A stretch of DNA of 64,000 bases from Escherichia phage NHEP1. The stretch is taken from sequence record PQ511146.1; one strand, 5' to 3'. The notes beneath the pieces are model-generated. The model saw only the letters and a program-made list of their open reading frames with translations. It was not told the origin of the DNA and made no database searches. This document shows positions 26,510 through 41,103 of this stretch, one piece after another (within the stretch, counting starts at the first letter, position 1; each line of letters opens with the position of its first letter). The position numbers were made by a program, and so were the translations under genes.

Positions 26510-27316
26510 TTGAGCAAGAAAGAGTCCAACGACAAATATTACACAGACCCCGAGTATGCAGAATATCTTGTTGGTAAAGTAAAAGGTAAGTATGGGAATT
26601 GTGCATACGTTGAGCCTTCTGCTGGAAAGGGTTCTTTTTCAAAACTATTTTCAGAGATACTGTCGTATGATTTGGTACCAGATCCTGAATTTGAAGGCCC
26701 AACCCCGTGTATTAAGGCAAACTTCTTAGAGGTGTACCCCAAGGCCGATGTATTCATAGGTAATCCTCCATTCGGCAAAAATTCGTCTTTAGCTTGCAAG
26801 TTCTTTAACCACTGTGCATCATTGCTAGAGCCTGGTGGAGCTATAGCCTTCATCTTGCCACGGACTTTTGAAAAAATATTTTTTGCAAACAAACTGGACA
26901 TGTCGATGCACCTTATTTACAGCGAAAGGTGCCCCAAGAACTCGTTTTTACTTAACGGCAAACCTTATGACGTGCCATGTGTTTTCCAAATTTGGGAGAA
27001 AAAGGTGTGCAATAGGGACCCTGTAGAGATCGGGGAGAATAAGTTATTTTCTTTTAGCACACCGGACGATTACGACTTCTGTATAAGACGTGTTGGGTAT
27101 AATGCTGGGAAAGTATTGGGAGATGATGACCCAAAATCTGAAGAATCAACATATTTCATAAAATCTTTAGTTGATGGTGTTGACAGAGTGTTTGTTGAGT
27201 GCTATTCTTCTTTTCAAGAAGAAGCAGGTAAGACTGCTGGAATGAAGAGTATAGGCAAGAAAGAACTACAATACATTTTGGAGACCAGGTATGATCAAAA
27301 GCATAGACTTGACTAA
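26510..27316 (+). CDS. N6-adenine DNA methyltransferase
   Basis: AdoMet motif VEPSAGKGSF and catalytic NPPF (FIGNPPFGK); start set at TTG 26510 after GGAGG because the track start 26480 lies inside the terminator hairpin. Confidence 0.6.
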   Translation: MSKKESNDKYYTDPEYAEYLVGKVKGKYGNCAYVEPSAGKGSFSKLFSEILSYDLVPDPEFEGPTPCIKANFLEVYPKADVFIGNPPFGKNSSLACKFFNHCASLLEPGGAIAFILPRTFEKIFFANKLDMSMHLIYSERCPKNSFLLNGKPYDVPCVFQIWEKKVCNRDPVEIGENKLFSFSTPDDYDFCIRRVGYNAGKVLGDDDPKSEESTYFIKSLVDGVDRVFVECYSSFQEEAGKTAGMKSIGKKELQYILETRYDQKHRLD

Positions 27317-27749
27317 AGAGCTTACCGATGCAAAAGCTTTTGGTGAGACAGCCGTGCAAAGGGGGCAGGCTATGGGGCTGGCACTACCTTTTGTCTTAAA
27401 AGAGCATTTTACAGATTTTCAGCTTATCCGGGGTGAAAAGGGTATGCTTATTCTGGAACATAAGCTGAGTAAGAAACGTTATAAAGTTGTTTTTAATTCT
27501 AAAGCTCCAACAAAACTTGGATTCAGAACTTACAATCTCAACCCTTCTTATACTAAGGGTGTTGGAAGAGTGGAGCAGCAGCATTTCAGTGCTAGAGCTT
27601 CTTTAGCCCCTTTGATGATAAATTTCTCAGGTGTGGCTTTAGGATACCTAGATAAGAAAAGAGTTCTTCATGTTCGTTTTACAGACTTCGTAACGCTTTT
27701 AGCTAACAACGAAGTAGATGAAAAGGGACGTGTAAAAACAAACTTCTAA
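27291..27749 (+). CDS. hypothetical protein
   Basis: 152-aa ORF. Confidence 0.45.
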   Translation: MIKSIDLTKELTDAKAFGETAVQRGQAMGLALPFVLKEHFTDFQLIRGEKGMLILEHKLSKKRYKVVFNSKAPTKLGFRTYNLNPSYTKGVGRVEQQHFSARASLAPLMINFSGVALGYLDKKRVLHVRFTDFVTLLANNEVDEKGRVKTNF

Positions 27750-27764
27750 TAACGTGCAGTATGA

Positions 27765-27968
27765 TTGGAGACCGCAATGACACCAGAGTTAACAATTCCA
27801 GACAGCTTTTCAGAAAGCTTTATCCCAGAAATGATGAAGAAGATGCGATCACTGCTTGATCAGATTGAGGAGGCTGTTTGGGAAGACGATGCTGTAGTAG
27901 CTAACGAGCTGGTAGATAAGTGTAAAAGTATTATTGATGCAGTTGAAGAATACCACGGAGGTTTTTAA
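27765..27968 (+). CDS. hypothetical small acidic protein
   Basis: 67-aa ORF. Confidence 0.4.
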   Translation: METAMTPELTIPDSFSESFIPEMMKKMRSLLDQIEEAVWEDDAVVANELVDKCKSIIDAVEEYHGGF

Positions 27969-28570
27969 TGGATATTATTGTTCTCAATGCTCCACCAAGT
28001 TCTGGAAAAGACCATATCGCAGATCTTTTGTTGGAAGCCATTCCAAACTCGCATCACCGCGAGGTAAAGGAAATGCTATTCAGTGTGGCAATTAAGGCAG
28101 CGGGTATTTCACCACAGTTGTGGAATGCACTCTATGATCGCCGCTACAAAGAAGAACCGTGCCCGTTCTTAATGATAGACGGAAAGCATGTTTCTCCGCG
28201 AGAATGGATGATTCATTGTAGTGAAAATCTGATTAAACCTATCTTTGGTGAAGACGCTTTCGGTAAGGCCGCAGTCGCATCCTTGAAGAAAGATTTCCCT
28301 GAAGGTAAAGGGGTTGTTGTTTACTCCGATGGTGGCTTCAAAGAGGAGCTGGCATGCCTTGGCGAGTACGCATACAGCACAGGTGGCGATCTTCTACTGT
28401 TCCGTATCCACCGTGCAGGATATGATTGGGGAAATGATTCCAGAACTTACCTTAGCCTAGAGAAGAACGGGATAAAAGGTATCGAGTTTGATGTTGTTAA
28501 CCCTGAGGGGTCTCCTTGGGAGTGCGCATCTGAGATTGTGTGCAAGTATATTGATGCTAAAGAGGTCTGA
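27968..28570 (+). CDS. P-loop nucleotide kinase (dNMP kinase-like)
   Basis: N-terminal Walker A IIVLNAPPSSGKDHIADLL resembles T4 gp1 dNMP kinase start. Confidence 0.5.
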   Translation: MDIIVLNAPPSSGKDHIADLLLEAIPNSHHREVKEMLFSVAIKAAGISPQLWNALYDRRYKEEPCPFLMIDGKHVSPREWMIHCSENLIKPIFGEDAFGKAAVASLKKDFPEGKGVVVYSDGGFKEELACLGEYAYSTGGDLLLFRIHRAGYDWGNDSRTYLSLEKNGIKGIEFDVVNPEGSPWECASEIVCKYIDAKEV

Positions 28571-28575
28571 GAACA

Positions 28576-39407: not shown

Positions 39408-39468
39408 AGGCAAATGAGAATCAGGTTTAAATAGATCGCTTTTAACTTTCCAACATTAAGGACCTCAC

Positions 39469-40518
39469 ATGAATTTAACACCTCGCAGCACCATGGTACA
39501 CGGCATGAAAGAAAAACAGAACGGCTTCGAACCGATGAGTAATAAAATGTTTGGTATGCCTGGTGGTATTATGGAAACATACAGCTACCCAACGCCAGTT
39601 GTTGACCACGTGCTTTATATTGACGATCTTGAGGATTTGCAGGATCATATGTCCCGTTTGCAAACAATTCGTATGGCACAGCCGGAAGAAAGTATCCGTG
39701 TAATTGTTAACAGCCCTGGTGGTTGCGTCCACATTGCCATGGCGTATTTGCAGGCATTCCGCGAGTCTCAGGCAAGCGTTGTTGTACACGCTGAAGGGAT
39801 GTGCTGCTCAGCAGGAACAATCTTATGGCTGGGTTGCAAAGAACGAACTGTGGCTCCGGACACAGAGTTTATGTTCCACTACTATCAAGGTGGCACCTAT
39901 GGCAACGGTGTGAACATGAATACTCAGGTCAACTACTGGAAGAAACGTTTTGAACGCCTGATCGAAAAATACTACGGTGGGGTTCTGACAGAAGATGAGA
40001 TCGCATCCATCACGGCTGGTGGAGAAGTGTGGTTGGATGGAGAAGAGCTGGCAGCTCGAACTGGTGCTATCATTCTGGACGATGAAAACATTCAGCGCAT
40101 TCAGAATGGGCAGAAACCGAAAAAGCTTTTGGCAAAAAGTGATGAAGAAGGTGTGCTAGGCGAAGCAGGCCTGCCAGAGATTCACCAATGCACATCTCTG
40201 GACGAGCTGGTTCACGCTGTTGAGTCTGCAAAAGCAAATGGTATGAAAGGTGATGTTCACACTGTGTTCCTGAATCTGCAGATGGAGAGTGGTGAGACCG
40301 TTAAGATTGCACTGGGTGAGATTACCTCGGAAGATCTGCAGCGATTCTCTGTGGTAGAGCTTCAGGACATTTTGTCCCAATTGAAAACCACCCTGAACGG
40401 AGGTGAAGAAGTTCAGGTTAAAGATAAGACCCGCAAGCGTCTGGTGGACAATATTATTAAAACAGCAAAAGAGCTCAATGAAAAAATCCTGGGCGCAGGA
40501 ATTATCGAAGAAGCTTAA
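39469..40518 (+). CDS. ClpP-like serine protease with about 150-aa C-terminal extension
   Basis: VIVNSPGG and GMCCSAGT (active-site Ser context) and MFHYYQGG (His) resemble ClpP/S14; C-terminal half has no recognisable motif. Confidence 0.55.
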   Translation: MNLTPRSTMVHGMKEKQNGFEPMSNKMFGMPGGIMETYSYPTPVVDHVLYIDDLEDLQDHMSRLQTIRMAQPEESIRVIVNSPGGCVHIAMAYLQAFRESQASVVVHAEGMCCSAGTILWLGCKERTVAPDTEFMFHYYQGGTYGNGVNMNTQVNYWKKRFERLIEKYYGGVLTEDEIASITAGGEVWLDGEELAARTGAIILDDENIQRIQNGQKPKKLLAKSDEEGVLGEAGLPEIHQCTSLDELVHAVESAKANGMKGDVHTVFLNLQMESGETVKIALGEITSEDLQRFSVVELQDILSQLKTTLNGGEEVQVKDKTRKRLVDNIIKTAKELNEKILGAGIIEEA

Positions 40519-40531
40519 ACATTAATCTTAA

Positions 40532-40553
40532 AGCCCTCTTCGGAGGGCTTTTA
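40532..40553 (+). terminator. rho-independent terminator
   Basis: AGCCCTC-TTCG-GAGGGCT followed by TTTTA. Confidence 0.6.
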
Positions 40554-40569
40554 TGATCTGGAGATTTGC

Positions 40570-41103
40570 ATGACTTGTGCTAGAAAACCTGACGAACAAC
40601 GTAACGCCTATGATGAATATGTGACACCAGAGTGGTGTGCAGAAGGGTTGTATGACCTCATTCCGTTCCCAGAAGATTGGACCTATTTGGAGCCTTGCAG
40701 GAATAGCGCCTCAGGTGTGTTCTACTCCCGTATGCCGTTAGGATCTGCATGGGGAGAAATCCAAGAAGGTGTTGACTATCTGAATACAGAATACAACCAT
40801 GTTGACTGTATTATCACCAACCCGCCGTACAGCCTGGCTCGTGAGTTTGTGGACAAGGCGTTGAAAGATGCCGACGTAGTTATTATGCTTTTGCGTCTTA
40901 ATTTTCTGGAAAGCAAGGCCAGATTTGAATGGTGGCTTGATAATGCCCCTACCACTGTGATCACAATATCTAAGCGTCCATCATTCCAATCGAATGGCAG
41001 AACTGACGGGCAAGCATATGCATATTTTGTGTGGGACAAGAAGAACCGTTTAGACCTACCACCATTTATGTGGTTGGCACCTCCGGAGGCAGATTTGAAA
41101 TGA
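40570..41103 (+). CDS. phage Dam-type N6-adenine DNA methyltransferase
   Basis: 177 aa; YVTPEW near N-terminus and catalytic IITNPPYS. Confidence 0.65.
   Translation: MTCARKPDEQRNAYDEYVTPEWCAEGLYDLIPFPEDWTYLEPCRNSASGVFYSRMPLGSAWGEIQEGVDYLNTEYNHVDCIITNPPYSLAREFVDKALKDADVVIMLLRLNFLESKARFEWWLDNAPTTVITISKRPSFQSNGRTDGQAYAYFVWDKKNRLDLPPFMWLAPPEADLK

Follow-up and report, generated by a model that had tools for sequence, protein, structure and literature searches.

The 64,000-nucleotide stretch of Escherichia phage NHEP1 analysed here (PQ511146.1; hereafter the window, at its full length) belongs to a Vequintavirus, an rV5-like Escherichia coli myophage, and carries two genes, MT1 and MT2, which encode conserved S-adenosylmethionine (SAM)-dependent amino-methyltransferases under strong purifying selection. 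An initial annotation, made from the sequence alone, had described a 268-amino acid (aa) enzyme with an NPPF motif and a 177-aa enzyme with an NPPY motif as two distinct N6-adenine DNA methyltransferases, and we found the open reading frames (ORFs), motifs and positions just as it gave them. Family matches, invariant motifs and predicted folds uphold the reading of both as N6-adenine-type enzymes, and the two proteins are only remotely similar to each other (BLASTP E=0.01), so they are distinct enzymes. The ~13 kb that separate the genes encode thymidylate synthase, aerobic and anaerobic ribonucleotide reductases, glutaredoxin, a PhoH-like protein and a ClpP-like protein; MT1 and MT2 are therefore separate features within an early/middle nucleotide-metabolism block.

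Between positions 26000 and 42000 the window is 99.0% identical to phage vB_EcoM-ECP26 (ECP26) and >90% identical to >100 related genomes, and it is 92-96% identical to the BASEL phage Bas51 (Escherichia phage WalterGehring, MZ501111). Both genes are core to the genus, each being found in about 118-120 near-identical records. As a feature the pair is ordinary and already annotated in a well-studied phage genus, as 'DNA N6-adenine methyltransferase' and 'DNA methyltransferase' in ECP26 and, for both proteins, as 'putative N6 adenine methyltransferase' in the BASEL record of Bas59 (EduardKellenberger, MZ501061).

Two distinct methyltransferases

The features of the MT1 locus are as follows.

26470-26493, plus strand: terminator-like hairpin between a DnaQ-like exonuclease gene and MT1 (10-pair stem with 6 GC pairs, T-rich tail)
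26510-27316, plus strand: MT1 ORF (268 aa, TTG start, GGAGG 5 nt upstream)
26612-26638, plus strand: motif I, the SAM-binding loop, EPSAGKGSF, aligning with EPACAHGPF of M.TaqI
26759-26773, plus strand: motif IV, the catalytic motif, GNPPF, aligning with GNPPY of M.TaqI
27002-27313, plus strand: C-terminal domain (~aa 165-268), presumed target-recognition domain, with the motifs RRVG..AGK, S.YF and TAG..S conserved family-wide

The hairpin overlaps an alternative upstream TTG (26480), which was chosen as the start in the ECP26 annotation.

MT1 is predicted to be an orphan gamma-class (M.TaqI-like), two-domain SAM-dependent N6-adenine DNA methyltransferase from a functionally undescribed family. 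Residues E35, P36, G39, G41 and F43 of motif I and G84, N85, P86, P87 and F88 of motif IV are invariant across 66 homologues. HMMER aligns motif I, NPPF and the following strand with M.TaqI, although a sequence search against the Protein Data Bank (PDB) gave marginal matches only (M.TaqI, E=0.06), and its motifs run in the gamma-class order, X, I, IV, VIII, ahead of the C-terminal target-recognition domain. The AlphaFold model is confident (pLDDT 92.4), has the Rossmann fold of class I SAM-methyltransferases and matches the folds of both adenine DNA and RNA methyltransferases. Its catalytic domain resembles rRNA m6A enzymes (PH1948, METTL5) as well as DNA enzymes, and only the two-domain DNA adenine methylases M.BseCI, M.TaqI, MmeI and CamA align over 224-251 of the 268 residues. 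The protein also matches the PADLOC type II methyltransferase model PDLC03255 over its full length (1.6e-33) and phrog_5172, a family of 'unknown function' (8.5e-126). It has 822 homologues in a large protein collection, among its relatives is a Phapecoctavirus counterpart with 53% identity, and precomputed annotations assign its homologues to PF26055, on which a literature search found nothing.

Two observations speak against this classification. MT1 is below threshold everywhere in curated Pfam, reaching 17.7 bits for Eco57I (PF07669, cut-off 25.3) and 15.8 for MTS (cut-off 23), and its D-F-L motif has Asn where Asp is typical of the family. It likewise falls short of the Pfam threshold for N6_Mtase (PF02384) and has no NCBIfam match. 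MT1 shares just 15-20% identity with M.TaqI and M.BseCI and differs from them in its much smaller recognition domain (~100 aa) and in having no partner endonuclease in the phage; as judged from sequence and model, it would act as a compact enzyme of the M.TaqI type. MT1 shares 100% identity with the Bas59 protein QXV77871.1 and 96% with bas51_0200, and its dN/dS against Bas51 is 0.054.

The second gene lies ~13 kb downstream, with the following features.

40530-40551, plus strand: hairpin AAAGCCCTC-TTCG-GAGGGCTTT between a ClpP-like gene and MT2, read directly from the sequence
40560-40564, plus strand: GGAGA upstream of the MT2 ATG, from sequence reading
40570-41103, plus strand: MT2 ORF (177 aa, ATG start, single domain)
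40690-40716, plus strand: motif I, EPCRNSASG (aa 41-49), with a 2-residue insertion relative to distant members (EPCR-ASG)
40774-40776, plus strand: codon of D69 in the D-Y-L motif, nearly invariant in the family and the site of the published loss-of-function escape mutation D69G
40804-40830, plus strand: DCIITNPPY (D79-Y87), the strand into motif IV and motif IV itself, with the sites of the published escape mutations D79G and T83P
40816-40830, plus strand: catalytic motif TNPPY (NPPY = aa 84-87), by sequence position

A terminator scan did not flag the hairpin at 40530-40551. By analogy with the motif order of M.TaqI, the D-Y-L motif may be read as motif III. In 69 homologues T83, N84, P85 and P86 are invariant and NPP[YF] is present throughout, and the protein matches phrog_799, 'DNA methyltransferase' (5.1e-67). 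Homologues in the large protein collection number 312 and are 157-227 aa long; the exact MT2 sequence was found on 353 contigs, and the 27 nucleotide differences from Bas51 are all synonymous (dN/dS 0). The AlphaFold model (pLDDT 87.6) has one domain and no separate recognition domain; its nearest structures are type I HsdM subunits, PacII, M.BseCI and CamA, together with the Dim1/KsgA rRNA methylases. A sequence search against the PDB gave nothing meaningful, and MT2 lies below every Pfam gathering threshold.

The initial annotation had called the 177-aa enzyme 'phage Dam-type', a label that holds for its function, methylation of GATC, and fails for its family. The small phage Dam family PF05869/TIGR01712 includes the Dam proteins of T1, HP1 and VT2. 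MT2 resembles this family in its size of ~170 aa, its one domain without a recognition domain, its N-terminal Y-x-T-P, its NPPY motif, its phage origin and its GATC target, but scores 19.2 bits against a cut-off of 28.1 for PF05869 and 16.1 against 97.05 for TIGR01712. At E<0.01, PF05869 matches 22 of 69 MT2-family members, about as many as match EcoRI_methylase. The MT2 family (phrog_799) is therefore best treated as a sister family to PF05869, to which it is closest in kind. MT2 yields the same product as the alpha-class Dam of E. coli and T4 (PF02086), Gm6ATC on both strands, yet it is much smaller, has no PF02086 match at E<=1, and its motif order (X, I, IV) is not that of the alpha class: the SAM loop precedes NPPY with no recognition domain between them. 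MT2 thus works like Dam without membership in the classical alpha-class Dam family.

GATC and GTAC methylation in virion DNA

The methylome of virion DNA that the initial annotation proposed as a check is in effect published for the close relative Bas51, in a study of retron defence (PLoS Biol 2025, PMC12548924). Bas51 mutants that escape the retrons Asa1 and Squ1 carry the methylase mutations D69G, D79G and T83P, and defence was also lost when these were remade in a clean background (PMC12548924). Nanopore calling of N6-methyladenine (6mA) in Bas51 virion DNA gave a GATC logo that is nearly gone in T83P; the methylated adenines number 1405 in GATC, 509 in GTAC and 576 at other sites in the wild type, and 35, 511 and 349, respectively, in T83P (PMC12548924, S4 Table). 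By our count, MZ501111 contains GATC 703 times, which makes 1406 adenines, and GTAC 258 times, which makes 516, and the two motifs are therefore essentially saturated (~99-100%) in Bas51 virions, in keeping with the earlier proposal of methylation at two specificities.

The publication leaves unnamed which of the three annotated adenine-methylase genes of Bas51 was studied (PMC12548924). Bas51 has four methylase genes; we translated all of them, and bas51_0176 is the only one with D69, D79 and T83, so we assign it as the published retron-trigger methylase. Its product is 100% identical to MT2, and a ClpP-like gene lies upstream in both phages. The Bas51 methylase is toxic when expressed in E. 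coli and triggers Retron-Squ1 in its native Serratia host (PMC12548924). Given the 100% amino-acid identity, Gm6ATC specificity, toxicity on overexpression and retron triggering all transfer to MT2. MT2 writes Gm6ATC on both strands, as shown for the identical protein in Bas51, and host Dam adds almost nothing to GATC methylation during Bas51 infection (35 of 1406 adenines in T83P). The simultaneous loss of 227 'other' sites in T83P suggests some off-target activity of an MT2-type enzyme that has no recognition domain.

GTAC is ~99% methylated in Bas51 virions (509-511 of 516 adenines), independently of MT2, and its methylation was left unattributed by the authors (PMC12548924). Bas51 offers two candidates for this mark, MT1 (bas51_0200) and bas51_0070. 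To our knowledge, the K-12 and B laboratory strains of E. coli have no GTAC methylase, so a phage enzyme must write it. We consider it probable that this enzyme is MT1, writing GTm6AC. M.TaqI-like gamma enzymes typically recognise short palindromes and type III Mod enzymes asymmetric sites, which favours MT1 over the Mod-like bas51_0070. MT1 is further favoured because a type II methylase model matches it at full length and its bacterial relatives have a restriction endonuclease-like (REase-like) partner (see below), and because MT1 is core to the genus, while the Mod-like gene is in fewer records and missing from Bas59. The known GTAC adenine methylases include M.PabI, M.HpyAXII and M.CviQI, some of them from viruses or restriction-modification (RM) systems; MT1 is likened to these by its predicted product, GTm6AC, and not by sequence.

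The assignment of GTAC to MT1 is inferred, and bas51_0070 is a live alternative to it. If its orthologue wrote GTAC, MT1 could have another, weaker or condition-dependent DNA specificity that adds some of the 'other' 6mA, or could be silent in the laboratory. Bas51 has three predicted adenine methylases against two reported motifs, the 441-aa bas51_0070 matches PF01555 (N6_N4_Mtase) strongly (4e-42) and has a DPPF motif, and PF01555 also includes enzymes for palindromic sites; in addition, 349 'other' 6mA sites persist unexplained after the loss of MT2. We nevertheless regard this alternative as unlikely. In the PDB, bas51_0070 is closest to type III Mod subunits (1e-28, 2e-24), EcoP15I Mod among them, which are enzymes for asymmetric sites, phage annotators have labelled it a type III methylation subunit, and its N-terminal part is similar to the genome of phage P1, which encodes the type III EcoP1I system. 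Near-identical genes occur in ~87 phage records, mostly from E. coli Vequintavirus (a 96% identical copy is present in ECP26), compared with about 118 records each for MT1 and MT2. The gene is absent from Bas59 at the syntenic site. A core gene with the dN/dS of MT1 is hard to square with a silent one, and the partnership of its family with a type II REase-like gene in bacteria also argues for MT1.

The similarity of the MT1 catalytic domain to rRNA m6A enzymes raises a further alternative, that MT1 methylates rRNA or tRNA of the host or RNA of the phage. We find this very improbable, as the structural matches to RNA enzymes span only ~150 residues of the Rossmann domain, and DNA methylases are the only structures that align with the C-terminal domain. 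The full-length match to a type II DNA methylase model and the pairing of bacterial homologues with a REase-like gene point the same way, and a fully methylated motif in the phage DNA, GTAC, has no better author than MT1.

Literature searches for Vequintavirus methylomes, phage GTAC methylases and KpnI digests of these phages turned up only the retron paper, and the rV5 genome paper is silent on methylation. The window also holds a local concentration of GTAC, with five sites within 119 bp (42470-42588, in the ORF 42324-42869) and eight in the surrounding kilobase, compared with a mean of 1.6 per kb (P ~0.005, uniform model). The Bas51 orthologue of this ORF, annotated as a 'putative glycosidase', is the second gene in which retron-Asa1 escapers carry mutations. 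We rejected the cluster as a conserved element, since the Bas51 gene has only 3 GTAC. Bas51 carries two extra methylase genes (14456-15781 and 17042-17806, outside the span of the window) beside helicase and primase genes, the 441-aa Mod-like gene and a 254-aa 'Dcm-like' gene without a Pfam match; the source phage of the window probably has more than two methylases.

Orphan genes and their restriction-modification relatives

The initial annotation had stated that neither methylase has an adjacent restriction endonuclease, and our analysis confirmed that both are orphan. The neighbours of MT1 encode the DnaQ-like exonuclease, small unknown proteins, a P-loop protein and a 5'-nucleotidase, and MT2 is flanked by genes for the ClpP-like protease and small unknown proteins; a Pfam comparison of these neighbours gave no match to a restriction-nuclease family. 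PADLOC returned nothing for the ORF that directly follows MT1, and we ruled this ORF out as a decayed copy of the REase-like partner (hhalign probability 1%). Searches of the full window and of the complete Bas51 genome found no member of the REase-like family, although small ORFs without an assignment could still hide a cognate restriction endonuclease. The DnaQ-like exonuclease (25481-26464) ends in a zinc-ribbon segment (aa ~265-320) with weak, sub-threshold matches to several zinc-ribbon families, one of them 'Restriction alleviation protein Lar' (17.9 bits, cut-off 28.6); this segment is probably a generic zinc ribbon.

Bacterial relatives of MT1 repeatedly have a REase-like neighbour. 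In 13 of 59 bacterial genome loci, and in several metagenome loci, the MT1-family gene is directly followed by a gene for a conserved protein of 194-216 aa, which abuts or overlaps the 3' end of the methylase gene, often with overlapping stop and start. The sole family match of this protein is to the PADLOC model REase_II PDLC03460 (up to 5e-11); Pfam, NCBIfam and the PDB gave no match for it, and its 167 homologues are all 'hypothetical'. One such pair of neighbours, in Poseidonibacter ostreae, is WP_152188988 and WP_152188990. Judged by sequence, this ~200-aa partner is a candidate for a type II restriction endonuclease not characterised so far. Representative genes, each immediately downstream of a bacterial MT1-family methylase, are the following.

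L011:5805-6404: REase-like partner gene
L013:5000-5650: REase-like partner gene
L015:1951-2577: REase-like partner gene
L016:2123-2707: REase-like partner gene

The full-length PADLOC match of MT1, together with this recurrent REase-like neighbour, argues that the MT1 family is a type II RM DNA methylase family and that such systems would be its ancestral setting. We lean slightly towards a more specific reading, in which this compact gamma-class family writes GTm6AC and pairs with the ~200-aa endonucleases as a new GTAC RM family, from which Vequintavirus and Phapecoctavirus would have captured the methylase alone. GTAC avoidance near loci with both genes compared with methylase-only loci (observed/expected 0.89 versus 0.75) was uninformative, and a narrow genome scan with two MT1-family peptide patterns found no Helicobacter or Pyrococcus locus.

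The REase-like partner genes often adjoin an IS1595 transposase. Homologues of MT1 with ~43-44% identity also occur on two large metagenome contigs, L003 (253 kb) and L004 (230 kb), where the surrounding genes are ORFans or encode ankyrin, patatin, ART-PolyVal and RCC1/WD40 domains; these contents suggest that the contigs come from giant viruses or jumbo phages and not from bacteria.

Elsewhere in the genome, Bas51 segments that differ from the window include the annotated homing endonucleases bas51_0188 and bas51_0186. At 35733/35734 the window is without an insertion of ~0.8 kb that Bas51 has in its anaerobic ribonucleotide reductase gene, and at 37029-37536 ~0.5 kb stands in place of ~1.9 kb of Bas51 sequence. 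Some ~20-50 GenBank records entered as 'Campylobacter phage' with C. jejuni as the host (MG065635-MG065690) share 94-99% identity with genes of E. coli Vequintavirus and are probably mislabelled or contaminant assemblies.

Proposed biological role of self-methylation

Based on these results, we consider it likely that the two orphan methylases serve self-methylation at GATC and GTAC and that the protection this gives is narrow. In this mechanism, the phage DNA would be methylated by MT1 and MT2 as it replicates, each enzyme acting on its own 4-bp palindrome. MT2, a minimal single-domain enzyme, turns practically all GATC sites into Gm6ATC on both strands, as shown for the identical Bas51 protein, and MT1, an M.TaqI-like enzyme that appears to descend from a type II RM methylase family, would most probably write GTm6AC. 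The benefit may be protection from nucleases that cut unmethylated GATC sites (MboI/DpnII/BclI-type) or GTAC sites (KpnI/RsaI/PabI-type), and such methylation would not confer general anti-restriction. An anti-restriction role is plausible, as a putative function that is motif-specific at most.

Some observations bear against such a role. In BASEL phenotyping with six RM systems (EcoKI, EcoCFT_I, EcoRI, EcoRV, EcoCFT_II and EcoP1_I), Vequintavirinae proved 'exceptionally susceptible' (PMC8594841). We rejected this sensitivity as a refutation of anti-restriction, because the four of these systems with well-known recognition sites, EcoKI, EcoRI, EcoRV and EcoP1I, target neither GATC nor GTAC; the result rules out a general protection and leaves room for one limited to certain motifs. 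GTAC is depleted (observed/expected 0.55 in the window, 0.59 in Bas51), which is unexpected for an always-protected site; CTAG is depleted to a similar extent (0.57 in both), and GATC is not depleted (1.09 in the window, 0.99 in Bas51). On a defence-free host, the titres of MT2 mutants stay within a few-fold of those of the wild type, and carrying this enzyme has a cost, since GATC methylation by the MT2 orthologue triggers the abortive-infection retrons Asa1 and Squ1 (PMC12548924).

An alternative that we find possible, though clearly less likely than protection from motif-specific nucleases, is that one or both methylases are selected mainly for another function. They could keep fast-replicating phage DNA fully Dam-methylated and thereby out of reach of host GATC readers such as MutH and SeqA, or they could control packaging or expression, as Dam does in phage P1. 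The almost unmethylated GATC of T83P indicates that the unmethylated state is the default during infection, E. coli hosts are Dam-positive and their GATC-reading proteins are always there, and Vequintavirinae show no visible protection against the six RM systems. However, the titres of MT2 loss-of-function mutants argue against an essential role in replication or packaging in the laboratory, and there is no conserved cluster of GATC or GTAC that could serve as a regulatory or pac mark; the clusters in the window at 20867-21014, 63599-63768 and 42470-42588 are below the cluster thresholds applied to Bas51. The descent of the MT1 family from RM cassettes also fits a defence-related origin.

What had not been published before is the assignment of the GTAC mark, probably to the 268-aa MT1, and the link between the MT1 family and a candidate restriction enzyme family. 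Overall, a genus of E. coli phages considered as therapeutic candidates carries DNA that is fully methylated at GATC and GTAC, which bears on the restriction systems that are able to stop these phages, on the enzymes that can be used to digest their DNA and on the defences that they trip, the last of which matter because retrons sense the GATC methylase.

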